From Ferroglobus placidus DSM 10642 (GTDB taxonomy: Archaea > Halobacteriota > Archaeoglobi > Archaeoglobales > Archaeoglobaceae): 32,000 bases of DNA. The stretch spans positions 51,250-83,249 of the forward strand of contig NC_013849.1 of assembly GCF_000025505.1 (NCBI RefSeq). Reading direction: 5' to 3'. Shown here one piece after another: positions 8,426-25,588 of the stretch. Position 1 is the first letter of the stretch. Every line of letters begins with the position of its first letter. Made by a program: the position numbers and the translations under genes. The notes under the pieces were generated by a model. That model saw only the letters and a list, made by a program, of their open reading frames with translations. It made no database searches and was not told the origin of the DNA.

Positions 8426-8428
8426 AGT

Positions 8429-11794: not shown

Positions 11795-11798
11795 GAGC

Positions 11799-13442
11799 AT
11801 GCTGAAAGATAATCTTCACGATAAAGTGCTGGAGATGACCGAGAAAGAAAAGACTGTTTTAACGAAAATTTACGAGATGAGCGAAAAGTATCCGGATCAA
11901 ACGGCGCTAATTTTCTTGGGAGAAAAGTACAACTACAAAAAGCTAATCAAACTAATAGAAAGCTTTTCTTCTGGAATTTCCGAGCTCGGAGTTAAAAAAG
12001 GAGATAGAGTAATGCTTTATCTTCCCAACTCCCCTCAGTTTCTCATCTCCTACTTCGGATTGATGAGGATAGGAGCTATTCCGGTGCCCGTCTCTCCCAT
12101 CTACACGAGTAACGAAATAAGGTACATGCTCGAAAACAGCGGAGCTAAAGTCGTTATCTGCAGCGATACGAACATAGGGTACGTTAGAGCCGTTGAAGAA
12201 GTTGGAGTTGAGAAAATCGTCGTTACGAACGTAGCTGATATGCTGCCAAAGTGGAAGAAAATTGTTGGAGAGCTTTTCGACAAAATTCCGAAGGGCAGCT
12301 ACGAAAAATCCGAGAAAGTATTTGAGTTCAAAAAACTGCTTAAAAAAGGAGAAAGCGTTGAAGAAGCAGAAATTGATCCGAAGAAGGATATAGCGCACAT
12401 TCTGTACACCGGCGGAACAACCGGAAGACCAAAAGGTGTCGTTCACACACACGCTTTTCTGCTAAGCGGAATAATCGGGTTGAGGGAGACTTACAAAGAA
12501 ATAAAAGAGCTTGAAAACAAGTTCGTCGTCGTCGTTCCCCTCTTCCACATGTTCGCATTGGACATGATAATGTCCACGACTCTCCACAAAGCCAACACCG
12601 CAATTTTGATGCCCAAGCCAAACATCGATGCAATCCTGGCGAGCATCGAGTACTACGAAGCTACTCTTTTTGCCGGAGTTCCGACTCTCTACAGGATGAT
12701 TCTCGAACACGATAGAGTCGACTATTACGACCTCTCCTCTCTCAAATTCTGCTGGAGCGCCGGAGACGTTCTTCCGGCTGAGGTTTACAAAATGTGGAAG
12801 GAGAAATTCGGAATTCCCCTCCACCAAGTTTACGGATCAACGGAAACCGTCGTCATTGCTGTAACGAGACTTTCTGAGGAGCCGAAGCTTGGTAGCGTTG
12901 GAAAGATAGTTCCGGGGAGAATCGCTAAGATTATCGATCCGGAAACGCTTGAGGAGGTTGAAGGGGAGGGGGAGTTGATCGTAACATCCGAATACCTCAC
13001 CATGGGTTATTGGAGAAACCCGGAAGAGACGGAGAAGGGATTCATAGAGAGCGGAGGTTATCTGTGGTGCAGAACCGGAGATTTCGTGAAAATTTACGAA
13101 GATAAGCTATATTTCGTCGATAGAAGGAAGGACATCATCAAGTACAAAGGGTACAGAATTGCGGCAAGTGAAGTTGAAGCTGTTTTGCAATCCCATCCGG
13201 CTGTTATTGCTGCAAGCGTTATTGGTGTACCAGACGAGAGAGTTGGAGAAAGAATTAAGGCTTTCGTGGTGTTGAAGGAGGACGCGAGAATTACAGCTCA
13301 TGATTTGAAGAGATGGTGCAGGGAAAGATTGGCACCTTACAAAGTTCCGGACTACATCGAGTTCAGGGACTTTCTTCCGAAGTCAAAAGTTGGAAAGATT
13401 TTGAGGAGAGAATTAAGAGATCAGGAACTCAGGAGGGGATGA
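11799..13442 (+). CDS. Acyl-CoA synthetase (AMP-forming), FadD-like medium/long-chain class
   Basis: 547 aa. The AMP-binding signature is YTGGTTGRPKGVVHTH, with YGSTE, the hinge TGDFV...DRRKDIIKYKGYRI, and a terminal PKSKVGKILRREL. It starts 4 nt after the livF stop, so it is the last gene of the transporter operon. Confidence 0.85.
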   Translation: MLKDNLHDKVLEMTEKEKTVLTKIYEMSEKYPDQTALIFLGEKYNYKKLIKLIESFSSGISELGVKKGDRVMLYLPNSPQFLISYFGLMRIGAIPVPVSPIYTSNEIRYMLENSGAKVVICSDTNIGYVRAVEEVGVEKIVVTNVADMLPKWKKIVGELFDKIPKGSYEKSEKVFEFKKLLKKGESVEEAEIDPKKDIAHILYTGGTTGRPKGVVHTHAFLLSGIIGLRETYKEIKELENKFVVVVPLFHMFALDMIMSTTLHKANTAILMPKPNIDAILASIEYYEATLFAGVPTLYRMILEHDRVDYYDLSSLKFCWSAGDVLPAEVYKMWKEKFGIPLHQVYGSTETVVIAVTRLSEEPKLGSVGKIVPGRIAKIIDPETLEEVEGEGELIVTSEYLTMGYWRNPEETEKGFIESGGYLWCRTGDFVKIYEDKLYFVDRRKDIIKYKGYRIAASEVEAVLQSHPAVIAASVIGVPDERVGERIKAFVVLKEDARITAHDLKRWCRERLAPYKVPDYIEFRDFLPKSKVGKILRRELRDQELRRG

Positions 13443-13922
13443 CTCAAAAATTTCGGGGGAGAAGCGGAACTTGTAAATGTCGTAGACGAACATTAGGTTG
13501 AGCTCGTCCACAAATTCCCCGTGCCTGTCTAAGAACTCGTGAATCCACATGGTAACCTCTTTAAAGCTTCTGAAAGCTGCTAACACCTTCCATCTTCTCA
13601 CCCCTCCAGTTACGGCGAACATAACAACGTGAGCTGAACCTATTAAATATTCATACGCTTTCTTCCATTTTTTGAAGTGGTGGTTGTTGAAGCTCATCTC
13701 GATAAAAGCGAAAATTAAGTTGTTCTCGTTTGGAATTATTACTTCCCTTATCGCACCGCTCTTTTTTAGTTCTTGCAAAATTCTCGCAACTCTCGTCAGA
13801 CTTATTTGTATTCCGTACTCTTTCAGCAAAATTTCTCTGAGCTCCTTGACGGTGACGTTCGGATTTTTCACCTTTTCTTTGATTATGATCGTCTTAACTT
13901 TATCCAGCTTCATACCTTTCAC
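13413..13922 (-). CDS. Lrp/AsnC-type transcriptional regulator (wHTH + RAM-like C-terminal domain)
   Basis: 169 aa. The N-terminal HTH is VTVKELREILLKEYGIQISLTRVARILQELKKSGAIRE. The C-terminal half has a beta-alpha-beta-like pattern (IFAFIEMSF...VLAAFRSFKEV). It overlaps the acyl-CoA synthetase stop by 30 nt (convergent). Confidence 0.65.
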   Translation of the reverse strand: MKGMKLDKVKTIIIKEKVKNPNVTVKELREILLKEYGIQISLTRVARILQELKKSGAIREVIIPNENNLIFAFIEMSFNNHHFKKWKKAYEYLIGSAHVVMFAVTGGVRRWKVLAAFRSFKEVTMWIHEFLDRHGEFVDELNLMFVYDIYKFRFSPEIFESSPPEFLIS

Positions 13923-13973: not shown

Positions 13974-15044
13974 TCATTTCGGAATCTTGAAAGGAGTTAA
14001 AGCTCGTTCCATGAGCAAATCGAAACCGCTCTTTTTGCCAATGACTGGCTCCTTCTTCTTTTGACTCCACACCGTCTCTGGACGAGCTTGAAGAATGAAA
14101 ACGTTCTTTGGGAAGTCGAAGTCTTTATCTATTGCCCACTCTATGTCCATTGGATGAGAGTAATGTTCCTCAATCTTCTTCCCTATCTCCGCCAAGTAAA
14201 CAATTTCCTCATCGCTCAAGGACGGCTTTTCCCTCAAATCCTCAGGAACTTCTTCGTGAACAACTTTCCCATCCTTGTAAACGCACCACACGAGTTTTGG
14301 AGAGATCGTTCTGTCCAATATTTCCTTCGTAACTTTATCTACGACGAACCTGTCTGGAGTTACCTCTCCACTTACAATAGCCTCTCCAAGCCCCCAAGCA
14401 GATTCGATAACGATCTGACTCTCATCTCCGTTTGTCGGATTGAGAGTGAACATAACTCCGCTGCTCCTCGAATTTACCATCTTCTGAACTACGACGGCGA
14501 TGGAAACCTCATAATGATCAAAACCTTTCGTCGCTCTGTAGGCTATCGCTCTCGGAGTGTAGAGACTGCTCCAGCACTTTAAAACGTGCTTCACTACTTC
14601 ATCCTCTCCTTTAATCCAGAGATAAGTTTCCTGCTGTCCGGCGAAACTTGCGTCGGGCACATCCTCTGCTGTTGCTGAGCTTCTTACAGCCACAGCCACT
14701 TCTTCGCCGACGATTTCGCACAGCTTTCTGTAAGCTTCTCTAATCTCTTCTTCGATTTTTTCCGGAATCGGAGTCGATTCCACAATCTCCCTCGCCAAAG
14801 CACTGACTTTTTCAAGCTCTTCCGTATTCTTTACGTCAACCTCGGATATTATCCTCGCTATCTGCGCTTTCTTCCCCCTCTCTTTCGCCCCTTCTAAGAA
14901 TTCCTCAAAAGCGTTTATTGTGATAACAAAGCCAGGTGGAATCGGAAAGCCAGCCTTTACCATCTCTCCTAAATTTGCCCCTTTTCCTCCTGCTATGCCA
15001 ACATCTTCTTTGCTTATTTCGTCAAACCACTTAACATACTTCAT
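13974..15044 (-). CDS. ATP-grasp nucleotide-binding subunit of a split PEP-synthase-like dikinase (PpsB-like)
   Basis: 356 aa. Residues FDEISKEDVGIAGGKGANLGEMVKAGFPIPPGFVIT, RSSATAEDVPDASFAGQQETYL and MDIEWA match the PPDK_N / PEP synthase N-terminal domain only. There is no His-swivel or TIM-barrel domain. A GGTGGT RBS precedes the ATG. Confidence 0.75.
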   Translation of the reverse strand: MKYVKWFDEISKEDVGIAGGKGANLGEMVKAGFPIPPGFVITINAFEEFLEGAKERGKKAQIARIISEVDVKNTEELEKVSALAREIVESTPIPEKIEEEIREAYRKLCEIVGEEVAVAVRSSATAEDVPDASFAGQQETYLWIKGEDEVVKHVLKCWSSLYTPRAIAYRATKGFDHYEVSIAVVVQKMVNSRSSGVMFTLNPTNGDESQIVIESAWGLGEAIVSGEVTPDRFVVDKVTKEILDRTISPKLVWCVYKDGKVVHEEVPEDLREKPSLSDEEIVYLAEIGKKIEEHYSHPMDIEWAIDKDFDFPKNVFILQARPETVWSQKKKEPVIGKKSGFDLLMERALTPFKIPK

Positions 15045-15094
15045 AGAGTACCACCTTCAACAATAGTCAATTATATATCGTTATATTTAAAACC

Positions 15095-15114
15095 TTGTCA
15101 AGTCTTAGCATTGA
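15095..15114. promoter_or_regulatory. Dyad motif copy A (TTGTCAA-N8-ATTGA) upstream of the PpsB-like gene
   Basis: TTGTCAAGTCTTAGCATTGA lies 51-70 nt upstream of ATG 15044. An A/T box TTATATTTAAAA (15081..15092) flanks it on the gene-proximal side. Confidence 0.45.
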
Positions 15115-15143
15115 TTAAAAATAATGGTGTAAAAAAAGTGGAG

Positions 15144-17015
15144 CTATTCTTCGGCTCTCTTCACAATCGTTACTACTCCCTTATCTCCGTCCACCCTGAT
15201 TATATCTCCGGTTTTTATCACCTGCGTAGCTATTCCCGTTCCGGTAACTGCTGGAATTCCGTATTCCCTACAAACTATCGCAGCGTGACTCGTCAATCCT
15301 CCTATGTCGGTCACAGCAGCTTTTATTTTCGTGAAAACGGGAGCCCAGCTCGGATTAGTATTTGGACAGACGAGAATCTCTCCCTCCTGCACCTGATCTA
15401 TCTCATCCAAGAACCTTATAACTCTGGCTTTCCCTTCAACAACTCCAGATGAAGATGCAAATCCTTTTATTTCCGTGACTTCCTCCGGTCGGTAGGTAAC
15501 ACCTTTAATCCACTCGCTGACTTTCTCCGAAGTTATTCCCCAGAGCATCACGGTAAATGGTTCCGTTACCTCTTCAGGAACGGTTCCCAAAGCTGGCGGA
15601 GGAGTCCAGTTCCTCGCTGCTTCGAGAATCTTCTTTCTCTTTTGAGCTTTTCTCTTCCAGTATTCAGCTCTCGGCGGCACGTTTTCTCCCAGAGCCCAAG
15701 CGGTGACGAGATCTTCAATGATCATTGGAATTTCGAAGCGATTGAAGAGGAAGATGTCGTCCACTTCGTTTAGCATTCCGTACCTGACGAAAAGTTTTCC
15801 GAACTCTCTCATTTTCTCAAAAACTATCGTGTGGAACCAGTGCTCGACCCAGAAGAGGTGGTTTTCGGCGTAATCGTAAATGTCTCTGACAATCTTGTAC
15901 GCTTCGTCGAACGCTTTTCTATCTTCGTCGGTTTTGATTAGCTTTCTGTACTCCTCAACGAGCTTTTCTCTCGCTTTGTGGATCTCGTCGATGTCTCTCT
16001 CTATCGTCTCACCTTTTTCAAGCATCTCTATGTAGCTTTTTAAGTAGCTGAAGGGGACTTCAAGGGTGTTTATCCAGCTTCCCTCGTAGTGGAACCATCC
16101 GCTACCGCAGGAGACGTAGAACCACGGATCTTTCGCCTCGTCAAATGCTCTAAGCCACTCTCTCCCTTCAGGAAAAATCTTTAATTCCTCAATCTTCTCC
16201 TCCGGGCTTTTGTCCGATTTCAGTATTTCCACAACCCTACCTCCAAGGGAAATGGCGAGCCTCGCAAGTTTTGCAAGCTCTTCTTGCGGTCGAAACATCA
16301 CCACGTCAGCTCCGGCTACCATCTTACCTATCGTGGACTCGCTTATTCCGGGGAAAAGCTTTCTGACAACGTCAGCAAAAGTCAGATAAGCCAAGTAGCT
16401 CAGATTTAGGTACTGGAAGTGGTACTGCCAAGCTTTGAATATCGCATCTATCAGCTTGTCGTAGGCTTCCATCAAGTCGTAGGAGGAATAGTACCCTCTT
16501 GGCTCCGGAATTACCCTTTCCTCTGGCTCAAAGGTTGGCAAATCAGGAACTTCTATGTTCTTAACGTACTCTCCGAGCTCTCTGAACTTCTTTTCCCACT
16601 TTTCATACAACTTCTCGCTCTTGTAATTCTGAAAAACCCAGAAAGCTCTTTTTTGAAACAGCTCGGCTTTCTTCTTAATCGTTTCCTCGCTTGGAGGCTC
16701 TACTGCGCAGATGTAGAAGTAGCAACCGAGAATTCTCTGGGCAACTCCCTGCGCTGGAGGAATGCAGAAGACCCTCGTGTTGTACTGAGATAAAGCGATC
16801 TGCCAAGCTTCGTGGAAGATCAAGTCGAAGGGATACATTGGATCTGGCGCGTGTATTTTGTCGAGGTACCAGAACTGCCTTTCTTCCCACTCTTTTCTCT
16901 CTTCGCTGAATATGTAGTGGGGTGGATACATCTCTTCCCATCCTTCAAGCTCCTTTGGAACTTCCACTTCCAGCGGTTTAGGAAATCCGTTTCCCAAAAC
17001 TACCACCTCACCCAA
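15144..17015 (-). CDS. Phosphohistidine-swivel subunit of a split PEP-synthase-like dikinase with a large unique N-terminal domain (PpsA-like)
   Basis: 623 aa with a TTG start (alternative GTG 9 nt downstream). The C-terminal ~90 aa is a PEP-utilising mobile domain (ILVCPNTNPSWAPVF...DIGGLTSHAAIVCREYGIPAVTG, His577). The N-terminal ~500 aa has no ATP-grasp and no PEP/pyruvate-binding barrel motifs that I recognise. Confidence 0.7.
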   Translation of the reverse strand: MGEVVVLGNGFPKPLEVEVPKELEGWEEMYPPHYIFSEERKEWEERQFWYLDKIHAPDPMYPFDLIFHEAWQIALSQYNTRVFCIPPAQGVAQRILGCYFYICAVEPPSEETIKKKAELFQKRAFWVFQNYKSEKLYEKWEKKFRELGEYVKNIEVPDLPTFEPEERVIPEPRGYYSSYDLMEAYDKLIDAIFKAWQYHFQYLNLSYLAYLTFADVVRKLFPGISESTIGKMVAGADVVMFRPQEELAKLARLAISLGGRVVEILKSDKSPEEKIEELKIFPEGREWLRAFDEAKDPWFYVSCGSGWFHYEGSWINTLEVPFSYLKSYIEMLEKGETIERDIDEIHKAREKLVEEYRKLIKTDEDRKAFDEAYKIVRDIYDYAENHLFWVEHWFHTIVFEKMREFGKLFVRYGMLNEVDDIFLFNRFEIPMIIEDLVTAWALGENVPPRAEYWKRKAQKRKKILEAARNWTPPPALGTVPEEVTEPFTVMLWGITSEKVSEWIKGVTYRPEEVTEIKGFASSSGVVEGKARVIRFLDEIDQVQEGEILVCPNTNPSWAPVFTKIKAAVTDIGGLTSHAAIVCREYGIPAVTGTGIATQVIKTGDIIRVDGDKGVVTIVKRAEE

Positions 17016-17054
17016 AAGTTTTCAAACAATAAATAATTAGAAATATTTAGCTCT

Positions 17055-17074
17055 TTGTCAACAATTGTCATTGA
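17055..17074. promoter_or_regulatory. Dyad motif copy B (TTGTCAA-N8-ATTGA) upstream of the PpsA-like gene
   Basis: TTGTCAACAATTGTCATTGA lies 40-59 nt upstream of start 17015, with an adjacent A/T box AAATATTTAG (17041..17050). The 25-mer 17053..17077 is 21/25 identical to 17175..17199. Confidence 0.45.
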
Positions 17075-17176
17075 AAAGTTTAAAAGCTAAGTGCTAATTC
17101 GAATTGATCGAATTTTTCTTTGGCAGCGGGTTAATTCACAAGCAGAGTCTTGGTGTGCTCGGAAACGTAAATAACT

Positions 17177-17196
17177 TTGTCAACACCTGACGTTGA
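17177..17196. promoter_or_regulatory. Dyad motif copy C (TTGTCAA-N8-GTTGA) in the PpsA-like/Nudix divergent intergenic region
   Basis: TTGTCAACACCTGACGTTGA lies 37-56 nt upstream of the Nudix ATG 17233, with an adjacent A/T box GTAAATAAC (17166..17174). Confidence 0.45.
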
Positions 17197-17232
17197 AAAA
17201 TCTTCTTATTGCTTCGCTCTTTTAAATTCTCC

Positions 17233-17652
17233 ATGAAGTTTGAGGTGATCGTCAGAGGCATTGTTAAGGATGGAGACAAAGTTCTCATCGGATTGAAGAG
17301 AAGGGACGATCCTCACCCGCTACAAGGTGAGTGGCACTTCCCCGGGGGAAGGTTGGAGTACGAAGAGAATCCTTGGGAGGCTGTTGAAAGGGAGATCGAG
17401 GAAGAGACCGGGTATAAAGTAAAGGCGGAGAGGATTATCGACGTCATTCCTAAAAAGCTCATCTGGCCGAACGAAATTGGAGAGCAGCAAACGCTACACG
17501 TAGTCTTTTCTTGCAAACTACTCGGAGGGAAAGCAAAAGCGGGAGACGATGTTGAAGAGGTCAAGTGGATTTCTGTGGAGGAGATAGACCGCTACTTGAA
17601 AAAAGAGTTTCTGCTGGAATCGAGTTTAGTTAGGGAGTTCATCGAATCTTGA
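17233..17652 (+). CDS. Nudix hydrolase (MutT family)
   Basis: The Nudix box GGRLEYEENPWEAVEREIEEETG matches GX5EX7REUXEEXGU. I prefer ATG 17233 (MKFEVIVRG...) over the TTG 17209 used in the ORF track. The 3' end overlaps the TrmB-like gene by 27 nt (convergent). Confidence 0.85.
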   Translation: MKFEVIVRGIVKDGDKVLIGLKRRDDPHPLQGEWHFPGGRLEYEENPWEAVEREIEEETGYKVKAERIIDVIPKKLIWPNEIGEQQTLHVVFSCKLLGGKAKAGDDVEEVKWISVEEIDRYLKKEFLLESSLVREFIES

Positions 17653-18402
17653 TAGGATTAGATCTCTTATCGCCCTCGATATGTCTCTGTTCTTCAAAAC
17701 TACGGCTTCGTCGTACCACCTTCTCTCTTTTAAGCTACCTTCCGAAGGCATTATTATCGCCTCTTCGCAGTCTCTAACGTACATCCTCGCGGAGGATTTG
17801 AATTCCGAGCAGATGGCTACTTTGCTCAAAGTCTCTACTATATCCTTCGGAAGCTCGCTGAGGGGGGCGAGCAGATATATTTTCACACCCCTTTCACTTG
17901 CTTCGAATATCTCGGGCTTGTACTCGTAAACTATCCTAATAGATTCGTTGCTTGTGGCAGCGATGGCGAGCTCTTCGTCGCTTCTGTTTATAAACTCCTT
18001 AATCGTGCTTATCAACACCCTCCTCCCCGTCACTTCGTAGGAAATCGTGTTCGATACGTTTCCCCTTACACCTATTGACCTTACAATGTTAAGAAATTCC
18101 TCTCTCAATTTGAACAAATTATACAGTCTCTTCTCAACATCTCTTATGAGCATCGAAGTAGCCACTTCCGGAGACACAGCGTAGTACCTTCTCGGCTTCT
18201 GCGCGGAAACGTAGATTAACCCTTTTTCACTCAAATTTTCCAGGATGTCGTAGATTCTCTGTCTGGTCAATCCAACTTCCTTGGCTAACTCGCTGACTGA
18301 AGCCCCGGACTTCTTCAGTAGGAGCAGGTATATTTCAGCCTCCGTCTTACTCAAACCCAGATCTTCCAGAATGTTTGTCAACCGTGACTTATATTCCTGC
18401 AT
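17626..18402 (-). CDS. TrmB-family transcriptional regulator
   Basis: 258 aa. The N-terminal wHTH is LGLSKTEAEIYLLLLKKSGASVSELAKEVGLTRQRIYDILENLSEKGLI, followed by a coiled-coil arm and a C-terminal effector-type domain, typical of TrmB-like proteins. Confidence 0.8.
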   Translation of the reverse strand: MQEYKSRLTNILEDLGLSKTEAEIYLLLLKKSGASVSELAKEVGLTRQRIYDILENLSEKGLIYVSAQKPRRYYAVSPEVATSMLIRDVEKRLYNLFKLREEFLNIVRSIGVRGNVSNTISYEVTGRRVLISTIKEFINRSDEELAIAATSNESIRIVYEYKPEIFEASERGVKIYLLAPLSELPKDIVETLSKVAICSEFKSSARMYVRDCEEAIIMPSEGSLKERRWYDEAVVLKNRDISRAIRDLILSRFDELPN

Positions 18403-18560
18403 TACAATGTATTGAAATTCAAAGCATTACTTAAACCTTTCCACCAGCCTCCATTTAAATTAAATGTTGGTTATGGAAACTTCCAAGCTAAATCTGTAAA
18501 ATTGAAAATTTGACACAATTTTATCTACATTAAACATTACGGTAGTTTTTAGGTGGTAGG

Positions 18561-20090
18561 ATGGGGGAGTTTATAGAAAAAAAGGACTACTTCGGAGTGA
18601 GGTTTCCGATACCGAGAGATCTGAGAGCTTTCATTGAAATACTTGAGAAGGAGGGAGAGTTGAAGAGAATAAAAGCGGAGGTCGATTGGAATCTCGAATT
18701 GTCGCACATAGCAAAGCTGAATGAAGAAAGAAGCGGTCCGGCTTTACTCTTCGAGAACATAAAGGACTACAAGCCGGGAGAGAAGAGGGGAAGCAAAGTA
18801 TTCACTTCAGCTTTCACAACTCCGAAAAGGGTTGCGATAGCTTTGGGAATGGACAGAAGCGCTGGGGTTGTTGACATAGCGAGAGAATGGATGACGAGAG
18901 TTACGAAGGGAGGAAAGATTCCTCCGAAGAAAGTTAGCGATGGACCAGTTATGGAGAACGTAGTTGAGGGGGACAAAATTAATTTGCTCGATTTTCCAGT
19001 GCCGCAGGTTTATCCTCAGGACGGTGGCAGATACTTCGGCACGGCAGTTTACTTATTAACTAAAGATCCAGAGAAGGGGAAGGAGTGGGTAAATCTCGGC
19101 ACATACAGAATGATGGTCCTCGACGAGAAGAGCTTGGGTGTTCAGATTCTCAAGGGAAAGGATGCCGACGTGATGATGCAAAAGTACAGGGAAATGGGAG
19201 AAAAGGAGATGCCAGCAGCAGCAGTTATCGGAGGAACCCCTCTCGGCTTCCTAACTGGAAGCACCCTCGTCGAATACGGGACGAGCGAGTACGAGATAAT
19301 CGGTGCTTTGCAAGGTGAGCCAGTAGAAGTTATCGAGAGCGATTTGACCGGTTTGCCTATAGATGCGAGGGCAGAAATTGTCGCGGAGGGATTCATTCCG
19401 GTTGACGAAAAAGAGTGGAGACCCGAGGGACCTTTCGGAGAGTACACTGGCTACTACTCAGGAAAAGCTAAAGAGGAATTTCCAAAGCCTTGGATTAGAG
19501 TGGAGAGGATAATGCATAGAAACGATCCGATATTCTGGGTGACAACTGTCGGAAGACCGGTTACTGACACGCACATGATTCAGTCTATAAACAGAACAGC
19601 CGAGCTATGGACTCAGCTCGAACAGATGGGAGTTCCGGGAATACAGTCCGTCTACATACCTCCAGAAAGCGGTGGAAGATTCTGGGCGATAATTTCTATA
19701 AAGCAGATGTATCCGGGACACGGAAGGCATGCAGGATTGGCAGCTTTCGCCACAGTCGTCGGAAACTACGGAATGAAGGGAGTCATTGTTGTAGATGACG
19801 ACATAAGAGCTGATGATTTGCCGAGAGTCTGGTGGGCTTTGTCGGTGAGGTACAACCCGGTCGAAGACACCGAGATTATAAAGAAGGGTAGGTCAACGCC
19901 TTTAGATCCCTCACTGCCGATATACAAGGACTGGTACGACAGAAGGTTGCTGGTTTCGAGAATCCTCATAGATGCAACGACTCCCTACGAATGGGAGAGG
20001 AAGCCGCAGGTTATAGAGCTCGACAAAGAAACTGTGGAAAAGCTGAAGCAGAGGTGGGACGAGTTCGGCTTCGACTGGAAGCCGGAGTAA
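18561..20090 (+). CDS. ubiD: UbiD-family prFMN-dependent (de)carboxylase
   Basis: 509 aa. UbiD-family hallmarks are NLGTYRMMV, EGPFGEYTGYYS and RFWAIISIKQ. An AGGTGGT RBS precedes it. It is the first gene of a 4-gene operon that ends with UbiX. Confidence 0.85.
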   Translation: MGEFIEKKDYFGVRFPIPRDLRAFIEILEKEGELKRIKAEVDWNLELSHIAKLNEERSGPALLFENIKDYKPGEKRGSKVFTSAFTTPKRVAIALGMDRSAGVVDIAREWMTRVTKGGKIPPKKVSDGPVMENVVEGDKINLLDFPVPQVYPQDGGRYFGTAVYLLTKDPEKGKEWVNLGTYRMMVLDEKSLGVQILKGKDADVMMQKYREMGEKEMPAAAVIGGTPLGFLTGSTLVEYGTSEYEIIGALQGEPVEVIESDLTGLPIDARAEIVAEGFIPVDEKEWRPEGPFGEYTGYYSGKAKEEFPKPWIRVERIMHRNDPIFWVTTVGRPVTDTHMIQSINRTAELWTQLEQMGVPGIQSVYIPPESGGRFWAIISIKQMYPGHGRHAGLAAFATVVGNYGMKGVIVVDDDIRADDLPRVWWALSVRYNPVEDTEIIKKGRSTPLDPSLPIYKDWYDRRLLVSRILIDATTPYEWERKPQVIELDKETVEKLKQRWDEFGFDWKPE

Positions 20091-20113
20091 ATTTCTAATT
20101 TTTTATTTTCGAG

Positions 20114-20821
20114 GTGGTAAATTTGGTTAAGTGGATCGGCTTCGATTACGGACAATGCTTGATGGACTCTTCGAACAGAAAAGTCGAGTACTGGATGGCA
20201 GCAGTTTTCATAGACGAAGAAAAGGAAAGACCGGGGATAATAAACGAGAAGGTGAAGCTTTACAACGAGCTGATAGAGAAGTACGGAGATTTTAGAAGGT
20301 TGCACGAAAAGGGGAGGCACGAGGTTGAGGAGAAAGTTCTCGAGAACAATCCGTGTTTGATAAAGAGGTATTACGAAGTGGAACAAAAGCTTCTAAAACC
20401 AGCGGATGGAGCTGAAGACGCTCTGAGGTATCTGAAAAAGAAGGGCTACGTTCTCGACGTAGTTTCTGATATGAGCACGGTGAACGTGATAATCAATTTC
20501 CTAAACAACTACAACCTCCGCCACTTCTTCTCCAACATCTACTCCCCTATTGGTGTTGTTAGAGAGAGCGGAGAAATCGACGAGAGCTTTAAAGGAGTTT
20601 CAAAGGAAGACGGAAGCCTTTACGAGAAGTTGAAGGAAGACCTCGAGAGGAGAGGAATTGACGTTTCCGAGGCTGTAATGGTTGGAGATCATCCGGTGAA
20701 GGATGTTGAAATGGCAAAGAAGTACGGATTCATAACCGTCCACTACGACGTGAAAGGAAAACCTTCGGACAAAGCGGATTACGTAATAAGCCACTTCTCG
20801 GAGCTTAAAAAGATATTTTAA
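20114..20821 (+). CDS. HAD-superfamily hydrolase-fold protein with a non-canonical motif I
   Basis: Motif I is WIGFDYGQCL (the nucleophile Asp is present; the Asp+2 position is Gly). Motif II is LDVVSDMS and motif IV is VMVGDHPVKDVEMA. The likely start is TTG 20123, 5 nt after the GAGGTGG RBS, rather than GTG 20114. Confidence 0.65.
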   Translation: MVNLVKWIGFDYGQCLMDSSNRKVEYWMAAVFIDEEKERPGIINEKVKLYNELIEKYGDFRRLHEKGRHEVEEKVLENNPCLIKRYYEVEQKLLKPADGAEDALRYLKKKGYVLDVVSDMSTVNVIINFLNNYNLRHFFSNIYSPIGVVRESGEIDESFKGVSKEDGSLYEKLKEDLERRGIDVSEAVMVGDHPVKDVEMAKKYGFITVHYDVKGKPSDKADYVISHFSELKKIF

Positions 20822-20830
20822 GGGGTCGAT

Positions 20831-22405
20831 ATGCCCATTTCCGGAGAAAAGTTCGAATTTAACGTTCCGGAAAGAATGAATTTAGCGGAGATCGTTGTTG
20901 ACAGGCAAGCTGAAAGGTTTCCAGAAAAAACGGCAATTGTTTGCGTTGGAAGCGAAAAAATGGGAATAAAAGAGGAGAAGGTAACATTTAAAGAGTTGAA
21001 AGATTTGACGAATAAAGCTGCGAACGCTTTTATTAATGAAGGAATGAGCTTTGACGACAGAGTTCTAATAGTTTTGCCCGACTCCATAGACTTCTACATC
21101 GCCTTTTACGGAGCTATAAAGCTCGGAGCCGTGCCAGTGCCTGTAAACACGTATCTTTTCGAGGAGGATTACGCTTACTTCTTGGAAGATTCCCGGGCTA
21201 AATTTGCGGTAATTTACAGCGGTTTCGAAAAAGCTTTGAAAGCAGCTGAAAATTCGAAGTATCTCAAAGAAGTTTTTACTGAAAAAGATTTGAGGGAACT
21301 TACGAATAAAGCATCTTCGGAATTCGAACCTTTAAAGCTCAGCAAGGATTCGATGGCTTTCTGGCTTTACAGTTCCGGAACGACCGGAAAGCCGAAGGGA
21401 GTTGTTCATCTCCACCACGATCCGATCTTCGTTTGCGAAAGCTATCACAGAAGAGTTCTCGGACTGAGCAGCGAAGACGTGTGCTACTCCGTTAGCAAGC
21501 TCTTCTTCGCCTACGGACTCGGAAGCTGCGGATACGGTAGTTTATACTTCGGGGCAACAGTGGTGGTTGATCCGGAAAGACCCGATCCGGAGAGAGCTGC
21601 AGAAATACTCGAAAAATACGGAGTTACAGCTTTGTTTACCGTCCCATCTTTCTACGCGAGGCTCGTAGAAATTGATAGGGATGTGAAGCATAAGTTAAGA
21701 ATCGCTGTGAGCGGAGGAGAGCCTTTGCCGGAAGCTGTATGGTACAAGTTCAAAGAGAAGTTCGGAGTTGAGATAGTTGAGCATATAGGATCAACCGAGG
21801 CTTTGTACGCTTTCATCGGTCACTATCCGGGGAAAGTCAAGCCCGGATACACCGGAGTCGTAATGCCCGGGTGGGAGGTTAAGCTTGTCGACGAGAACGG
21901 AAACGAAATAGTCGAGGACGGGATTCCCGGCAAACTTTTGATTAAGGGTGACTCGGTGGCTGCTTTTTACTGGGAAAAGCACGAAAAGACGAAAAAAGCC
22001 TTTCTCGGAGAGTGGTACGACACTGGCGACACCTTCGTTAAAGAGGGCGAATACTTCAAGTACCACGGAAGGGCAGACGACTTGATAAAAACGAGAGGGC
22101 TTTGGGTTTCTCCGGTTAAAGTTGAGAACGCTTTATTAAAGCATCCGGCGATAGAAGAATGCGCAGTTGTGCAGGGATTTAACGAGAAAAAACTCGAGGT
22201 CGTTGCGGCTTACGTTGTTCTAAGGAAAGGATACGACGAAAGCGTTGTGGATGATGTAAAAAGATTTTTGAGGGAGCAGGGGCTGAAAGGCTTCGAAATC
22301 CCTGAGAAATGGGTTTTTGTCAGAGAACTTCCGAGAACCGCTACTGGAAAAATTCAAAAATACAAGTTGAGGATGAAAGAGTTTGAGGAGGCGTTTGGGA
22401 AATGA
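20831..22405 (+). CDS. Aryl-CoA ligase, benzoate/4-hydroxybenzoate-CoA ligase family
   Basis: 524 aa. AFWLYSSGTTGKPKGVVHLHHD matches the FWLYSSGSTGxPKG signature I associate with benzoate-CoA ligases. It also has YDTGDTF...GRADDLIK and a C-terminal PRTATGKIQKYKLR. Confidence 0.75.
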   Translation: MPISGEKFEFNVPERMNLAEIVVDRQAERFPEKTAIVCVGSEKMGIKEEKVTFKELKDLTNKAANAFINEGMSFDDRVLIVLPDSIDFYIAFYGAIKLGAVPVPVNTYLFEEDYAYFLEDSRAKFAVIYSGFEKALKAAENSKYLKEVFTEKDLRELTNKASSEFEPLKLSKDSMAFWLYSSGTTGKPKGVVHLHHDPIFVCESYHRRVLGLSSEDVCYSVSKLFFAYGLGSCGYGSLYFGATVVVDPERPDPERAAEILEKYGVTALFTVPSFYARLVEIDRDVKHKLRIAVSGGEPLPEAVWYKFKEKFGVEIVEHIGSTEALYAFIGHYPGKVKPGYTGVVMPGWEVKLVDENGNEIVEDGIPGKLLIKGDSVAAFYWEKHEKTKKAFLGEWYDTGDTFVKEGEYFKYHGRADDLIKTRGLWVSPVKVENALLKHPAIEECAVVQGFNEKKLEVVAAYVVLRKGYDESVVDDVKRFLREQGLKGFEIPEKWVFVRELPRTATGKIQKYKLRMKEFEEAFGK

Positions 22406-22989
22406 GGATCGTCGTAGCTCTAACGGGAGCTTCCGGACAGATTTACGGAATAAGGCTTCTCGAATACTTAAGTAAAACGGATATCGAGACGCATCTTGTT
22501 ATCTCTCCGGCTGCCAAAGAAAATATAGAGATAGAGACGGAATACAGCGTAGAATACGTTGAGAGCTTGGCGGATTTCTGCTACGACTACATGGACTTCA
22601 CGGCTCCAATAGCAAGCGGAAGTTTCAAGCACGACGGGATGATCGTGATCCCCTGCTCGATCAAAACAGCTTCGGCGATAGCAAACAGCCTCAACTACAA
22701 CCTGATAATCAGAGCAGCAGACGTGACTTTGAAGGAGAGGAGAAAGCTCGTTCTCGTCGTTAGAGAGACTCCGCTTCATTCCGGTCACTTGAGGATGCTC
22801 GCCAAGCTTTCGGATCTCGGAGCGATAGTATACCCGCCAGTTCCAGCGTTTTACTCCAAACCGAAGAGCTTGGACGACATCGTAAATCACACGGTGGGAA
22901 GAGCCCTCGATCTTCTCGGAGTTGAGAACAACCTCTACAAACCTTGGATGGGCAGGGAGAGTATATCGGAGAAGGAGTTCAATTTGTAA
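22402..22989 (+). CDS. ubiX: UbiX flavin prenyltransferase (prFMN synthase)
   Basis: 195 aa. MRIVVALTGASGQIYGIRLLEYL, MIVIPCSIKTASAIANS and LVVRETPLH are typical UbiX/Pad1 motifs. Its ATG overlaps the ligase stop (ATGA). Confidence 0.9.
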   Translation: MRIVVALTGASGQIYGIRLLEYLSKTDIETHLVISPAAKENIEIETEYSVEYVESLADFCYDYMDFTAPIASGSFKHDGMIVIPCSIKTASAIANSLNYNLIIRAADVTLKERRKLVLVVRETPLHSGHLRMLAKLSDLGAIVYPPVPAFYSKPKSLDDIVNHTVGRALDLLGVENNLYKPWMGRESISEKEFNL

Positions 22990-23546
22990 TCGGCATCAAG
23001 CTCTGAAAATTTATTTTCCCCCTCCAAAACAGCTATTTTAATTCCGGCTCTTTTGCAAGCCTCCACATCTGATCTGCTATCACCTACGAAGAGAACATCT
23101 TTTTTGCTGACCTTAAGCGATTCGATCGCTTTTAATATTCCCATCGGAGACGGTTTTAAAAGCTGAACGTCCTTTCTTCCTATAACAACCTCGAAGCTGC
23201 CGGCTATTTGAAATTTTTCAAGAGCTTTTTTCAAAACGTCCTTGCTTACGTTAGAAACCACCGCCTTTTTAACCCTCAGCTTTTCGAGAACTTCCTTGAC
23301 TCCCTCTCTAAGCTTCCACCTCTTAAAAGCCTCTAAATCGTACTTGTCGTAGATATTGTCGATCAAAGAAATTAAGGATGGATGATATGAAGCTACGAAG
23401 TTGTATATCTCGGCGTAGTTGCTACTCTCGATCTCAATTCCCCTCTCTTCGAGAACGCTTTTCGCTTCTTTCACTGCCTTACTCAAATCCCAAGCGAAGT
23501 TGACAAGTGTCCCCTCAAAGTCGAAGATTAGTGCTTTGAACGTCAT
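22935..23546 (-). CDS. HAD-superfamily phosphatase (phosphoglycolate phosphatase-like)
   Basis: Motif I is LIFDFEGTLV, motif II is AVVSNVS and motif IV is LFVGDSRSDVEA. I prefer ATG 23546 (MTFKALIFDF), which overlaps the upstream gene stop as ATGA, over the track start 23582. Confidence 0.75.
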   Translation of the reverse strand: MTFKALIFDFEGTLVNFAWDLSKAVKEAKSVLEERGIEIESSNYAEIYNFVASYHPSLISLIDNIYDKYDLEAFKRWKLREGVKEVLEKLRVKKAVVSNVSKDVLKKALEKFQIAGSFEVVIGRKDVQLLKPSPMGILKAIESLKVSKKDVLFVGDSRSDVEACKRAGIKIAVLEGENKFSELDADYKLNSFSDILSLPIQGL

Positions 23547-25588
23547 TCTTTCCTCGCAAGGAGTGCTTTCAGCTCCGGGCATCCGGAAATCGGATCTCCG
23601 GGCTTGTTTGAGGTAAGAACGTTAACGTTCCCTTCGCTCCATCCGTGGGGGATGTTTATTACTCCCGGGGCTATGTCTTCGGTAACTTTAGCTCTGACGA
23701 CTATGCTTCCCCTCTCGGTTTTGACGATAACCTTGTCTCCGTCCTTCACTCCGAACTTCTCTGCAGTTTTCGGATTTATCTCAACGTAAGCCTCCGGAAG
23801 AATTCTTCTCATCTTCTCCACGTTTCTCATTTGGGAATGGGTGTAGTAAACGTCCCTCGCCCCGGTAGTTAGAATTAAAGGATATTCCTTGGCTTTTTCG
23901 CTGTACGGACTTTCGCTCGGCTCTTTCGGGGTTGGAATCGGATCGTAGCCGAGTTTTTTCAAAGTTTCCGAGTATATCTCGACTTTCCCGCTCGGAGTTT
24001 TGAATCCTCTCTTCTTGTACTCTTCGTACTTTACTTCTCCAGTCCAAACTCCTGAAGGATATTTTTCGTTCAGATCTTCGAAGGAGTAGCCGGTAGGCTC
24101 CAAAACGTAATCGAGAACTTCTTCAACGCTCGTCCACGGGAAGTAGTTATCGAATCCCATTTTCTTCGCAAGCTCAAGCCAGAATTCCACGTCACTCTTA
24201 GCCTCTCCCAAAGGCTCTATCACCTTCTTCCTCAGCATCATGTAGGGAATTCCGAATATCACGCTGTAGTAGTCGACGAGCTCGTATCTTTCAAGGAAAG
24301 AGGCGGCGGGTAAGAAAACATCTGCGTGTTTTGCTGTTTCCGTCATGAACATATCCATAACCGCCAGAAATTCCACCTTCTTCAGCATCTCCACGACTTT
24401 ATTCGAGTTGGGCCAGGTTAAAGCCGGATTTGATCCGGCGACAAAGATGCTTTTAATTGGGTACGGCTTTCCTTCGAGGACAGCGTCGTATAAATACATC
24501 CCCTGCCCCTCGCCAAGATGAGTTTCCCAGACTTGGTAGAATAGGGGGTGCTCCTTAATTCCGAGAGGCACGTCTTCCAGCATTTCCACGAGCCTGAGGT
24601 TTCTCGTGTGGACTCTTGCAGCTCTGACAAATCCTCCCTTTACATCGATGTTCCCCGTTAAAGCGTGGAGAATAGCCACGCTCCTCGCGTTCTGCACGCC
24701 AGTAGGAACCTGATCCAGAGCGTTCACCCCTTGGACTATGCATGCCGGCTTTGTTGTTGCGAAAGTTCTTGCAATCTCAGTAATCGTCTCTGCTTCAACC
24801 CACGTTCTTTCGGCTATTTCCTCCAGAGAATATTTGGCTACGTGATTTTTCAATTCTTCAAAGCCGACGCAGTAATTGGAGACAAATTCCTTATCGTAAA
24901 GCTCCTCTTCGATTATGACTTTCATCAACCCCAAAGCTAAGTAGGTGTCGCTGCCCGGTCTAATTGAGGCGTGTATGTCAGCCATCTTCGCAACCTTGGT
25001 TCTTCTCGGATCGATTACTATAAGCTTCGCTCCTCTTTCTCTGGCTTTGTCTATCCTCCAAGCCAAAGGTGGCTTGGAAGCGTGGGGATTGTGAGCCCAG
25101 ACGATTATGCAGTTAGCATTGTCTACATCAGCTACGTTGAACTTTCCGATCGTGAGAATGTAGCCTATTATCTGATGCCTGTAACACATGCTCTCGGGAG
25201 AGAAGCAGTTTGGAGTACCATAGACATCCATAAACCTCCTTATGAAGCCTACAGTAGATGAACCTCCGAGAAGTATCGGCATTCCGATTATCGTAGCAAA
25301 GTACCTCGGGTCCTCTTCTCTTATCTCCTTCAAATTCTCAGCCACGAGCTCTATAGCATAATCCCAGTCAACCTTTTTCCACTTCTCTCCTTCCTTGACC
25401 ATCGGACGCGTCACTCTTTCTTTCGAGTAGATGTAATCTGGAGCGACGCTTCCTTTCGGGCAGAGCCTTCCAAAATTGAGAGGGTGCTCCTTCATTCCCT
25501 TAACACTCGTTATTCTTCCCTTTTCAACTTTCACATCCATTCCGCAACTCCAAGCGCAAAGCTCGCAAGCTGTCTTGATTATCATCAC
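23543..25588 (-). CDS. Molybdopterin (Mo/W-bis-MGD) oxidoreductase catalytic subunit, cytoplasmic, with an N-terminal [4Fe-4S] motif
   Basis: 681 aa. CELCAWSCGMDV...GRLCPKG gives the C-x2-C-x3-C-xn-C cluster starting at residue 8, so there is no Tat signal. GTPNCFSPESMCYRH places a Cys at the usual metal-ligand position. The C-terminal molydopterin dinucleotide-binding barrel reads PLILTTGAR...VEINPKTAEKFGVKDGDKV. Confidence 0.85.
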   Translation of the reverse strand: MMIIKTACELCAWSCGMDVKVEKGRITSVKGMKEHPLNFGRLCPKGSVAPDYIYSKERVTRPMVKEGEKWKKVDWDYAIELVAENLKEIREEDPRYFATIIGMPILLGGSSTVGFIRRFMDVYGTPNCFSPESMCYRHQIIGYILTIGKFNVADVDNANCIIVWAHNPHASKPPLAWRIDKARERGAKLIVIDPRRTKVAKMADIHASIRPGSDTYLALGLMKVIIEEELYDKEFVSNYCVGFEELKNHVAKYSLEEIAERTWVEAETITEIARTFATTKPACIVQGVNALDQVPTGVQNARSVAILHALTGNIDVKGGFVRAARVHTRNLRLVEMLEDVPLGIKEHPLFYQVWETHLGEGQGMYLYDAVLEGKPYPIKSIFVAGSNPALTWPNSNKVVEMLKKVEFLAVMDMFMTETAKHADVFLPAASFLERYELVDYYSVIFGIPYMMLRKKVIEPLGEAKSDVEFWLELAKKMGFDNYFPWTSVEEVLDYVLEPTGYSFEDLNEKYPSGVWTGEVKYEEYKKRGFKTPSGKVEIYSETLKKLGYDPIPTPKEPSESPYSEKAKEYPLILTTGARDVYYTHSQMRNVEKMRRILPEAYVEINPKTAEKFGVKDGDKVIVKTERGSIVVRAKVTEDIAPGVINIPHGWSEGNVNVLTSNKPGDPISGCPELKALLARKE

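Follow-up and report, generated by a model that had tools for sequence, protein, structure and literature searches.

The probable pps-ppc phenol-activation cluster of Ferroglobus placidus DSM 10642 and its HAD-type proteins

The window analysed here, 32,000 nucleotides of the genome of the archaeal hyperthermophile Ferroglobus placidus DSM 10642, contains a gene cluster whose products fall in the consecutive accession run ADC64272-64282, four of the window proteins being exact matches of ADC64274, 64278, 64280 and 64281 from this strain. The open reading frames, domains, motifs and spacings given by a first-pass annotation of this DNA were all confirmed. The genes and features are:

13974..15044, minus strand: ppsB, ATP-grasp subunit of a two-component dikinase (356 aa; PPDK_N at 17-334; ADC64274.1)
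15144..17015, minus strand: ppsA, phenylphosphate synthase alpha-type subunit (623 aa; Pfam PEP-utilizers; NF006153)
17053-17077 and 17175-17199, no strand assigned: 25-nt direct repeat, CTTTGTCAACAnnTGnCnTTGAAAA, present twice between the divergent ppsA and nudix genes
17209..17652, plus strand: Nudix hydrolase (Pfam NUDIX), between ppsA and trmB
17626..18402, minus strand: TrmB-family transcription regulator (Pfam TrmB, 73.5 bits; ADC64277.1), divergent from the ppcB operon
18561..20090, plus strand: ppcB, phenylphosphate carboxylase beta-type subunit, UbiD family (TIGR02724; ADC64278.1)
20114..20821, plus strand: capped HAD-IA-type protein (Pfam HAD_2/Hydrolase; motif I variant Asp11-x-Gly13)
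20831..22405, plus strand: aryl-CoA ligase, benzoate-CoA ligase family (AMP-binding; ADC64280.1)
22402..22989, plus strand: ubiX, flavin prenyltransferase providing prFMN for a UbiD-type carboxylase (TIGR00421; ADC64281.1)
22935..23582, minus strand: second HAD-IA hydrolase (motif I DFEGT; Pfam HAD_2, 104 bits)

In the run from ppcB to ubiX the coordinates leave gaps of 23 nt and then 9 nt, and an ATGA overlap joins the ligase and ubiX genes. The gene set and its order are repeated in six other Archaeoglobi loci (L001-L006) and the core of the cluster is found in many bacterial loci too; the arrangement therefore exceeds chance. The ppsA-ppsB-ppcB-ubiX grouping was seen across dozens of genomes: a ppsB homologue shares the locus with ppsA in 72 of 80 related loci, and of the 41 with at least 8 kb of flanking sequence, 37 contain ppsB, 29 ppcB and 26 ubiX.

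As canonical reference we used the cluster on plasmid pAZKH of Azoarcus sp. KH32C (L086; ppsABC-ppcBDAG), which is orthologous to those of Thauera aromatica K172 and Aromatoleum. PpsA, which in GenBank (ADC64275.1) begins six codons further in and has 617 aa, scores 1078 bits against NF006153 and contains PEP-utilizers (residues 543-613) as its sole Pfam domain; neither PPDK_N nor the PEP/pyruvate barrel was found in the 623-aa protein by Pfam search. It carries the motif GGLTSHAAIV, with His577 invariant across 11 aligned homologues, and it combines a helical region for substrate binding with a C-terminal swivel domain that holds this histidine. Rifampin phosphotransferases, in which three domains are fused in one chain whereas the window dikinase is split, were the sole significant matches in a fold search with a low-confidence PpsA model, in agreement with the mechanism described for two-component dikinases and their kinship with rifampin phosphotransferase (PMC12167813). 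PpsB has PPDK_N as its one domain and aligns with positions 1-341 only of the 784-position PEP synthase model. Identity to the Azoarcus proteins is 44% across 617 aa for PpsA and 50% over the full length for PpsB, and this full-length homology to the canonical pair bears out the first-pass description of a swivel protein and an ATP-grasp part as PpsA/PpsB-like.

The F. placidus pair resembles PpsABC of Thauera K172 and Aromatoleum in its subunit sizes (about 70 kDa for the His-bearing protein, about 40 kDa for the ATP-grasp one), in placing ppsB after ppsA, and in the GG..SHAAIV motif at the catalytic His. It differs in that the window has no CBS-domain PpsC and that a TrmB-type regulator stands in place of a sigma-54-dependent one. 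PpsA also belongs to a clade apart from the Thauera/Azoarcus type, common to Desulfobacterota (65-88% identity), and is 65-76% identical to PpsA of Desulfobacterota and other bacterial reduced pps-ppc loci.

With 44% identity to canonical PpsA and 41-42% to cresol- and acetovanillone-type kinases, PpsA is roughly equidistant from both and therefore does not by itself fix the substrate. The same enzyme logic could act on another aromatic nucleophile (aniline, cresol, hydroxyacetophenone, catechol or hydroquinone), with phenol as a side substrate; in the aniline variant, phenylphosphoamidate would lead to 4-aminobenzoate. Homologous two-component kinases use 4-cresol, hydroxyphenylethanones and acetovanillone (bioRxiv 10.1101/2022.04.28.489975; PMC12167813), Desulfatiglans anilini employs PpsAB-like and PpcB-like proteins on aniline (PMC7500099), and PpsA homologues at 40-48% identity, to which F. 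placidus PpsA is as near as to canonical PpsA, occur in differing contexts (biotin carboxylases, P450 with HD phosphohydrolase, others). HpeHI of Rhodococcus, AcvAB of Sphingobium and CreHI of Corynebacterium share the split architecture and the His-swivel mechanism, and their plasmid-borne relatives show about 40-43% identity. However, the products of these enzymes go to biotin-dependent carboxylases or to P450 oxidation, whereas the partner of PpsAB here is a PpcB equivalog. Moreover, the alpha subunit of the aniline kinase of D. anilini is only about 27% identical to that organism's own phenol PpsA (PMC7500099), and the window PpsA shares 65-70% identity with the PpsA clade of Desulfobacterota found beside PpcB. 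The growth substrates of F. placidus include phenol and 4-hydroxybenzoate (PMC3236036), and the literature ties its PpsAB to phenol (bioRxiv 10.1101/2022.04.28.489975). Because this published physiology shows growth on phenol, another phenolic substrate, which the first-pass annotation had raised as a caution, is unlikely, and we consider the whole family of other nucleophiles improbable.

The cluster's sole UbiD gene, ppcB, encodes a product with all three UbiD domains, labelled "phenylphosphate carboxylase, beta subunit" in GenBank. It scores 559 bits against the PpcB equivalog model TIGR02724 (cutoff 469), and lies below the cutoffs of the alpha-subunit model TIGR02723 (202 versus 565) and of the VdcC model for hydroxyarylic acid decarboxylases (308 versus 650). 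Identity within the Azoarcus cluster is 53% to PpcB, 32% to PpcA and 29% to PpcX, so that the comparison with PpcA and PpcB proposed in the first pass comes out on the side of PpcB. The UbiD active-site Arg/Glu/Glu and metal-ligand positions are kept: N178, R183, E289 and E294 are invariant among 51 PpcB-like sequences, and E243 lies within a conserved EY[ED] segment in PDB alignments. Position 201, a presumed metal ligand, is Asp in the archaeal clade, the window protein included, and His in bacteria.

Like PpcABCD of T. aromatica, the window combines a PpcB-type UbiD protein with an adjoining HAD gene and with UbiX and Nudix genes. Unlike it, the window has no PpcA paralogue, 85-aa gamma subunit or KdsC-type delta subunit, and its HAD protein is a capped HAD-IA with Asp-x-Gly where PpcD has DVDG. 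This protein (20114..20821; 232 aa in the GenBank version, P0145) had been taken for a PpcD-type phosphatase subunit. We rejected it as a PpcD orthologue: it has no TIGR02726 match at E<=10, no significant similarity to canonical PpcD (E=2.2) and another fold subclass, its structure model (pLDDT 92) being nearest to PH1655/PH0459 and dehalogenases. In the 29 members of its family the D, G and Q of motif I are invariant and GDxxxD is kept. The gene lies directly 3' of ppcB in 7 of 9 archaeal loci, and in L084 and L085 a Nudix gene sits between the two. Since the protein is unrelated to PpcD beyond the superfamily, its role in the carboxylation step is a guess, in which it would be a candidate phosphoryl-accepting partner of PpcB.

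The second HAD gene (22935..23582), absent from the first-pass annotation, is convergent with ubiX and overlaps its 3' end by 55 nt. Its orthologues adjoin ubiX in L003-L005 (48-58% identity), and it appears to be a conserved accessory gene. The sole match of canonical PpcD in the window was to this protein, and was weak and local (36 aa, E=8.5e-4).

That the HAD beside ppcB is not a PpcD could also suit a different reading, namely that UbiD, UbiX and HAD together decarboxylate 4-hydroxybenzoate reversibly or carboxylate phenol directly, with no phosphorylated intermediate, the dikinase serving otherwise. UbiD enzymes are described as intrinsically reversible (de)carboxylases, and PMC5946492 reads Holmes et al. 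as reporting a UbiD-like PpcX that is transcribed in F. placidus and carboxylates phenol directly. The window UbiD, however, is far under the VdcC cutoff and above that for PpcB, and ppsAB is linked to ppcB in 29 of the 41 well-flanked loci, in archaea and bacteria alike. Direct carboxylation of phenol is, moreover, thermodynamically unfavourable at physiological CO2, which is the established rationale for an ATP-consuming route. We regard this reading as very unlikely. The archaeal mevalonate pathway also requires a UbiD/UbiX pair, as trans-anhydromevalonate-5-phosphate decarboxylase system, and the nearby Nudix gene and HAD phosphatases could in principle concern isoprenoid phosphates. Yet the UbiD protein scores above the PpcB equivalog cutoff and is 53% identical to a bacterial PpcB, its gene is co-operonic with that of an aromatic-acid CoA ligase and adjoins ppsAB, and the cluster is present in bacteria without this pathway, which leaves a mevalonate role next to no credibility.

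The ligase contains FWLYSSGTTGKPKG, passes TIGR02262 (441 bits, cutoff 375), as its earlier assignment to the benzoate-CoA ligase type implied, and has benzoate-CoA ligases 4EAT and 2V7B as its best PDB matches (about 1e-96). It is presumed to be a 4-hydroxybenzoate-CoA ligase; for benzoate, F. placidus has a CoA ligase of its own, Ferp_1044 (PMC6500515). UbiX scores 262 bits against TIGR00421 (cutoff 109) and is 58% identical to UbiX of the Azoarcus cluster. The Nudix gene, which the first-pass annotation did not mention, has orthologues at the equivalent position in L001 and L005, and further Nudix genes occur in the clusters of Caldarchaeum, L084, L019 and canonical Azoarcus (33% identity to the latter), although outside archaea the gene is only weakly associated with these clusters (10 of 80 loci). 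By analogy with Nudix enzymes of E. coli that produce DMAP for prFMN (PMC12359138), it may convert DMAPP to dimethylallyl phosphate, the co-substrate of UbiX. The position of trmB is conserved in L001-L006 (50-98% identity) and L084 (41%), and the divergent TrmB-family protein is likely the cluster regulator. The 25-nt repeat (2 matches versus 0 expected from shuffles), of which the closest relative, L001, keeps one copy only, might be bound by a regulator or belong to a promoter.

Taken as the phenol-activation cluster, the locus would work in three steps. By homology, PpsB would present MgATP, His577 of PpsA would attack the beta-phosphate with hydrolysis of the gamma-phosphate, and the phosphorylated swivel domain would then reach the helical substrate domain of PpsA, similar to that of rifampin phosphotransferase, and phosphorylate phenol there (phenol + ATP + H2O -> phenylphosphate + AMP + Pi), a ping-pong dikinase reaction via phospho-His as in phenylphosphate synthase-type enzymes (PMC12167813; bioRxiv 10.1101/2022.04.28.489975). 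A reduced phenylphosphate carboxylase, a single PpcB-type UbiD protein that is probably a homo-oligomer with prFMN and Mn2+/K+, would then exchange phosphate for CO2 at the para position to give 4-hydroxybenzoate, the co-transcribed HAD probably accepting or hydrolysing the phosphoryl group. UbiX would supply the prFMN, with Nudix possibly providing DMAP from DMAPP. Judging from its family membership, the ligase would form 4-hydroxybenzoyl-CoA, which would enter a reductase and the benzoyl-CoA pathway encoded elsewhere; benzoyl-CoA reductase is Ferp_1184-1187. Family models and Azoarcus identities agree with the first-pass scheme of split dikinase, UbiD carboxylation with a HAD partner, CoA ligation and UbiX cofactor supply.

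PpsC, PpcA, PpcC (ppcG of the Azoarcus record) and PpcD are missing from the window, the CBS-domain protein, second UbiD paralogue and small carboxylase subunit having already been noted as absent. This counts against the phenol-cluster reading, as in Thauera full carboxylase activity needs all four subunits (PMC7500099). Most relatives lack them likewise, and reduced subunit sets with PpsA, PpsB, PpcB and a UbiX-like protein but no gamma subunit are documented in Geobacter metallireducens GS-15 and D. anilini, as well as Syntrophorhabdus (PMC5946492; PMC7500099). In bacterial loci the gene that follows ppcB usually encodes a stand-alone receiver-domain protein, a UPF0261 protein or a ligase in place of the Asp-x-Gly HAD, and the ligases are only about 25% identical.

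The evidence of Holmes et al. 2012 for the F. placidus pps and ppc genes is reportedly transcript abundance. In bioRxiv 10.1101/2022.04.28.489975, PpsAB of F. placidus is listed among phenylphosphate synthases with reference to that study, and PMC3236036 presents the organism as oxidising phenol, with its phenol genes and pathway characterised. The first-pass view that such a module was undescribed for Archaeoglobus thus falls away, the DNA being that of F. placidus, whose pps/ppc genes had been reported. We are confident that the window holds the pps-ppc cluster by which F. placidus converts phenol anaerobically to 4-hydroxybenzoyl-CoA. This cluster is already published and its functional reading is known, not new; the family of capped HAD proteins beside archaeal PpcB, small and with Asp-x-Gly invariant, may be a new detail.

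The region is the published phenol cluster of Ferroglobus placidus and is not new. Exact sequence matches assign the DNA to F. placidus DSM 10642; the genes carry the consecutive GenBank accessions ADC64272 to ADC64282, and the UbiD protein is deposited as "phenylphosphate carboxylase, beta subunit". The abstract of Holmes et al. 2012 reportedly places the genes for phenol carboxylation via phenylphosphate in a single cluster, with higher transcription on phenol. F. placidus oxidises both phenol and 4-hydroxybenzoate (PMC3236036), and "PpsAB of Ferroglobus placidus DSM 10642" is listed, on genomic and transcript grounds and citing Holmes et al. 2012, among the reported phenylphosphate synthases (bioRxiv 10.1101/2022.04.28.489975). 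The first-pass annotation had offered the module as undescribed for Archaeoglobus, a claim of novelty which fails because the source was taken to be Archaeoglobus, with F. placidus cited merely as a phenol-degrading relative, when the DNA is that of F. placidus itself, whose pps and ppc genes were already reported. Its phenol-type functional reading was nevertheless essentially right, and all the ORFs it named were found where it had placed them. The cluster comprises the following features.

13974-15044, minus strand: ppsB, 99 nt downstream of ppsA and on the same strand, 356 aa, with a PPDK_N ATP-grasp domain only
15144-17015, minus strand: ppsA, 623 aa, with PEP-utilizers (residues 543-613) as sole Pfam domain
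17053-17077 and 17175-17199: a 25-nt sequence, CTTTGTCAACAnnTGnCnTTGAAAA, present as two direct repeats in the intergenic region from which ppsA and the Nudix gene diverge
17209-17652, plus strand: Nudix gene, between ppsA and trmB, absent from the first-pass annotation
17626-18402, minus strand: trmB, encoding a TrmB-family regulator
18561-20090, plus strand: ppcB, encoding the UbiD protein
20114-20821, plus strand: HAD gene
20831-22405, plus strand: ligase gene
22402-22989, plus strand: ubiX
22935-23582, minus strand: second HAD gene

The split dikinase architecture was borne out by Pfam and by PEP synthase models. A Pfam scan of the 623-aa PpsA found neither an ATP-grasp domain nor a PEP/pyruvate barrel in addition to the swivel domain, in which His577, within GGLTSHAAIV, is invariant among aligned homologues, and PpsB aligns solely with the first 341 positions of the PEP synthase models. 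PpsA is 44% identical over 617 aa, and PpsB 50% identical, to the counterparts in the canonical ppsABC-ppcBDAG cluster of Azoarcus sp. KH32C. PpsA is a full-length homologue of the canonical protein; in a neighbour-joining tree the F. placidus clade is separate from the Azoarcus type. The kinase mechanism is known from Thauera PpsAB and Rhodococcus HpeHI (bioRxiv 10.1101/2022.04.28.489975; PMC12167813). In the F. placidus enzyme, the ATP-grasp subunit would present ATP, the swivel histidine would attack the β-phosphate and the γ-phosphate would be hydrolysed, after which the phosphohistidine would swing to a substrate domain likened to the rifampin-binding domain of rifampin phosphotransferase. 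PpsA was modelled poorly by AlphaFold (pLDDT 56.5, from an 11-sequence alignment), and the only significant PDB matches of the model are six rifampin phosphotransferase entries, with more than 500 aligned columns; as far as such a model can be read, the fold search is consistent with that likeness.

The predicted activity of PpsAB is the conversion of phenol and ATP to phenylphosphate, AMP and Pi; the sequence of PpsA by itself does not fix phenol as the substrate. Cre- and Acv-type relatives are 41-42% identical to it, and plasmid-borne relatives (40-48% identity) lie beside biotin carboxylases of the acetovanillone/hydroxyacetophenone type, beside P450 and HD phosphohydrolase genes of the cresol type, or in other contexts. 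Distant homologues serve aniline in Desulfatiglans anilini (PMC7500099), and therefore a substrate different from or broader than phenol remains a minor rival. Phenol is the supported substrate, backed by linkage to a PpcB equivalog and by the physiology of the organism.

That linkage rests on the UbiD protein, which contains the UbiD_N, UbiD and UbiD_C Pfam domains and, at 559.1 bits, exceeds the cutoff of TIGR02724, the PpcB equivalog model (468.95). It stays below the cutoffs of TIGR02723, the PpcA (alpha subunit) model (202 bits, cutoff 565), and of VdcC, the model for hydroxyarylic acid decarboxylases (308 bits, cutoff 650). Identity to the Azoarcus KH32C proteins is 53% for PpcB, 32% for PpcA and 29% for the extra UbiD. 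The first-pass annotation had also raised the possibility of an archaeal anhydromevalonate-phosphate decarboxylase, a reading argued against by the PpcB equivalog match, the operon context and the existence of bacterial orthologues. Residues N178, R183, E289 and E294 are invariant across 51 PpcB-like sequences, E243 lies within a conserved EY[ED] segment in PDB alignments, and position 201 is Asp in the archaeal clade versus His in the bacterial PpcB-like proteins. By spacing, we take the conserved residues to correspond to N168/R173/H191/E233/E277/E282 of Aspergillus niger Fdc1, presumably metal ligands and an Arg/Glu/Glu network. Carboxylation by the PpcB-like enzyme would use prFMN from the co-operonic UbiX.

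Several canonical subunits are missing from the window, much as the first-pass annotation had observed for a CBS-domain PpsC, a second UbiD and a small carboxylase subunit. No tblastn match to the CBS accessory protein PpsC was found within it; this protein is stimulatory but not essential in Thauera (bioRxiv 10.1101/2022.04.28.489975). The single UbiD gene in the window falls below the alpha cutoff, leaving no PpcA by tblastn or family models; the gamma subunit (~85 aa) has no tblastn match there and the intergenic gaps leave no room for it; and the delta subunit, PpcD (TIGR02726, capless KdsC-type, DxD), is not among the window genes.

A genome scan retrieved loci encoding the 80 closest PpsA relatives (65-98% identity), all from MAGs, a set to which Thauera and Geobacter do not belong. 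Six of these loci are from Archaeoglobi and nearly all others from bacterial MAGs, mostly uncultured Desulfobacterota. Of the 80, 72 encode a PpsB homologue, and of the 41 that are flanked by 8 kb or more, 37 contain ppsB, 29 a PpcB-like UbiD gene and 26 ubiX. The Archaeoglobi loci keep the full order of ppsB-ppsA, TrmB, ppcB-HAD-ligase-UbiX and second HAD gene, with the Nudix gene found in L001 and L005 (Archaeoglobus sp. JdFR-37) alone. Because PpsC, PpcD or a gamma subunit occurs in one locus only among the 80, and a single UbiD gene is present in 49 of 52 related loci, the set of PpsAB, PpcB and UbiX is the common form in this clade, dominant among the retrieved relatives. Reduced sets are likewise found in Geobacter metallireducens, D. 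anilini and Syntrophorhabdus (PMC5946492; PMC7500099). The Thauera-type cluster used as canonical comparison, on Azoarcus sp. KH32C plasmid pAZKH, has the order sigma-54 regulator, ppsA, ppsB, CBS protein, ppcB, ppcD, ppcA and ppcG, followed by UbiD, UbiX, DUF120, Nudix, an AMP-binding gene and a transporter.

The HAD protein is the one point at which the cluster parts from the textbook system, and its equation with the Thauera-type delta subunit in the first-pass annotation is not supported. The window protein has no TIGR02726 match even at E≤10 and no significant similarity to canonical PpcD (E=2.2). Whereas Azoarcus PpcD is a 169-aa capless KdsC-type HAD with a DVDG motif, the window protein has 235 aa, a cap and a D-x-G motif, and its model (pLDDT 92) shows a capped HAD-IA fold like those of PH1655, PH0459 and haloacid dehalogenases. 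The family it belongs to is small (29 proteins in a search of 5.8 billion sequences), with an invariant motif I, W-x-G-F-D-[YF]-G-Q, in which the nucleophilic Asp is retained, as is the Mg-binding GDxxxD, and the general-acid position D+2 is always Gly. The gene lies immediately 3' of ppcB in seven of nine archaeal loci, a Nudix gene intervening in the other two (L084 and L085), and in Candidatus Caldarchaeum the two genes share an ATGA-type overlap; bacterial relatives (38-39% identity) also lie beside PpsA/B-type genes. The window HAD protein is a member of a distinct Asp-x-Gly family tied to PpsAB-type kinases, and its candidate role is to handle an aryl phosphate.

A relative of this protein (39% identity) is also encoded in bacterial locus L081 (6836-8732), where its neighbours are genes for a PpsB-like ATP-grasp subunit, a receiver protein and an Amidohydro_2 protein. 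L081 contains no UbiD gene, and its putative decarboxylase is of the Amidohydro_2 type, a family with non-oxidative phenolic-acid decarboxylases among its members; the combination of kinase and HAD may serve another carboxylase family in the same way.

A tentative reading, which we regard as possible but rather doubtful, is that archaea and some bacteria use a minimal carboxylase made of homomeric PpcB and the non-orthologous Asp-x-Gly HAD, with recruitment of the HAD being lineage-specific and a Nudix enzyme providing DMAP. The nucleophilic Asp would then accept the phosphoryl group without protonating the leaving group, and the unprotonated phenolate would be passed to the prFMN site. Each lineage would have recruited its own Asp-phosphate-forming protein beside PpcB: Thauera a PpcD of the KdsC type, archaea the Asp-x-Gly HAD, and Desulfobacterota possibly a receiver domain that stands alone. 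In Desulfobacterota-type clusters the gene after ppcB mostly encodes a stand-alone response-regulator receiver protein of ~175 aa, an observation made in 31 loci (L018, L030-L035, L053-L075 and others). Among 50 loci with PpcB, 26 encode this protein, which has a conserved tail, RLP[ST]SYFE[RK]RWGAAWQD; its role may be regulatory or, as a speculation, that of an Asp-phosphate acceptor in place of PpcD.

The remaining operon genes could be assigned with the aid of family models, which confirmed that four tightly packed genes encode UbiD, the HAD protein, a benzoate-CoA ligase-family enzyme and UbiX; the gaps of 23 nt and 9 nt and the ATGA overlap between ligase gene and ubiX are likewise seen in the sequence. 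The ligase scores 441.5 bits on TIGR02262, the benzoate-CoA ligase family (cutoff 375.25), and its best PDB matches are benzoate-CoA ligases; 4-hydroxybenzoate specificity of such ligases is not readable from sequence (PMC5852087). A dedicated benzoate-CoA ligase, Ferp_1044, and a benzoyl-CoA reductase, Ferp_1184-1187, are located elsewhere in F. placidus (PMC6500515), in agreement with the earlier remark that downstream enzymes lie outside the window. UbiX scores 262 bits on TIGR00421 (cutoff 108.9) and is 58% identical to its Azoarcus KH32C counterpart, the Nudix protein 33%. DMAP, which UbiX uses as co-substrate, is made from DMAPP by Nudix enzymes in E. coli (PMC12359138). Nudix genes occur in the window, L001, L005, Caldarchaeum, L084 (where the protein is isopentenyl-diphosphate-isomerase-like), L019 and the Azoarcus KH32C cluster. 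In the latter (22841-24439), UbiX is flanked by Nudix and DUF120, the archaeal-type riboflavin kinase family, and in L019 (16201-18273) it is accompanied by Nudix, a PAC_bac-domain protein and a flavin reductase. A universal Nudix member was considered and rejected, as a strict motif search found it in 3 loci and a custom HMM in 10 of 80, 6 of them with UbiX. Given detection in just 10 of 80 loci, the Nudix-UbiX link is suggestive only, and we propose as a hypothesis that the cluster Nudix enzyme may supply DMAP to UbiX.

The 25-nt repeat occurs twice in the window, where no copy is expected by chance. We do not regard it as a shared operator: beyond the one copy kept by the closest relative it is not conserved, and it has no match upstream of ppcB. 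Two convergent gene pairs run into each other at the 3' end, with an overlap of 55 nt between ubiX and the second HAD gene (22935-22989) and of 27 nt between Nudix and trmB (17626-17652).

The flanks of the cluster contain the following.

4644-6525, minus strand: IS607-like pair, a 434-aa TnpB/OrfB-family protein preceded by a 203-aa serine recombinase with MerR-type HTH
7124-13442, plus strand: Liv-type ABC transporter (binding protein, two permeases, two ATPases), then a 547-aa acyl-CoA ligase
13413-13922, minus strand: 169-aa protein just downstream of ppsB, with a possible N-terminal HTH
23543-25588, minus strand: 681-aa cytoplasmic Mo/W-bis-pterin enzyme that has a 4Fe-4S motif at its N terminus and lacks a signal peptide

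The 169-aa protein has no match in Pfam or other family models; a protein with 56% identity occupies the same position in L005, and it may belong to the cluster. The best solved relative of the Mo/W enzyme is acetylene hydratase (2e7z, 2.9e-97), an activity it probably does not have, as an Ala after the second cluster Cys replaces the catalytic Asp, which we take to be Asp13 of acetylene hydratase. The L005 cluster has a 79% conserved counterpart at its side, and in L018, L048, L057 and L060 homologues of 33-37% identity are encoded no more than a few kb from ppsA. The transporter and 547-aa ligase resemble aromatic or fatty acid uptake-activation units in arrangement; we left them out of the module, since the related Archaeoglobi loci have only non-orthologous counterparts of 30-42% identity.

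This cluster is the only archaeal, hyperthermophilic case of anaerobic phenol activation driven by ATP, and it offers thermostable aryl kinases as well as UbiD enzymes that fix CO2. Its significance has been appreciated for over a decade, and so the finding alone brings no new biology. Our additions are modest, namely the assignment to the reduced type, the distinct HAD family and the cofactor-supply genes that travel with such clusters. The non-orthologous HAD and the genes for cofactor supply offer biochemists minor leads, and these additions could be of help when a minimal phenylphosphate carboxylase is first reconstituted in vitro.
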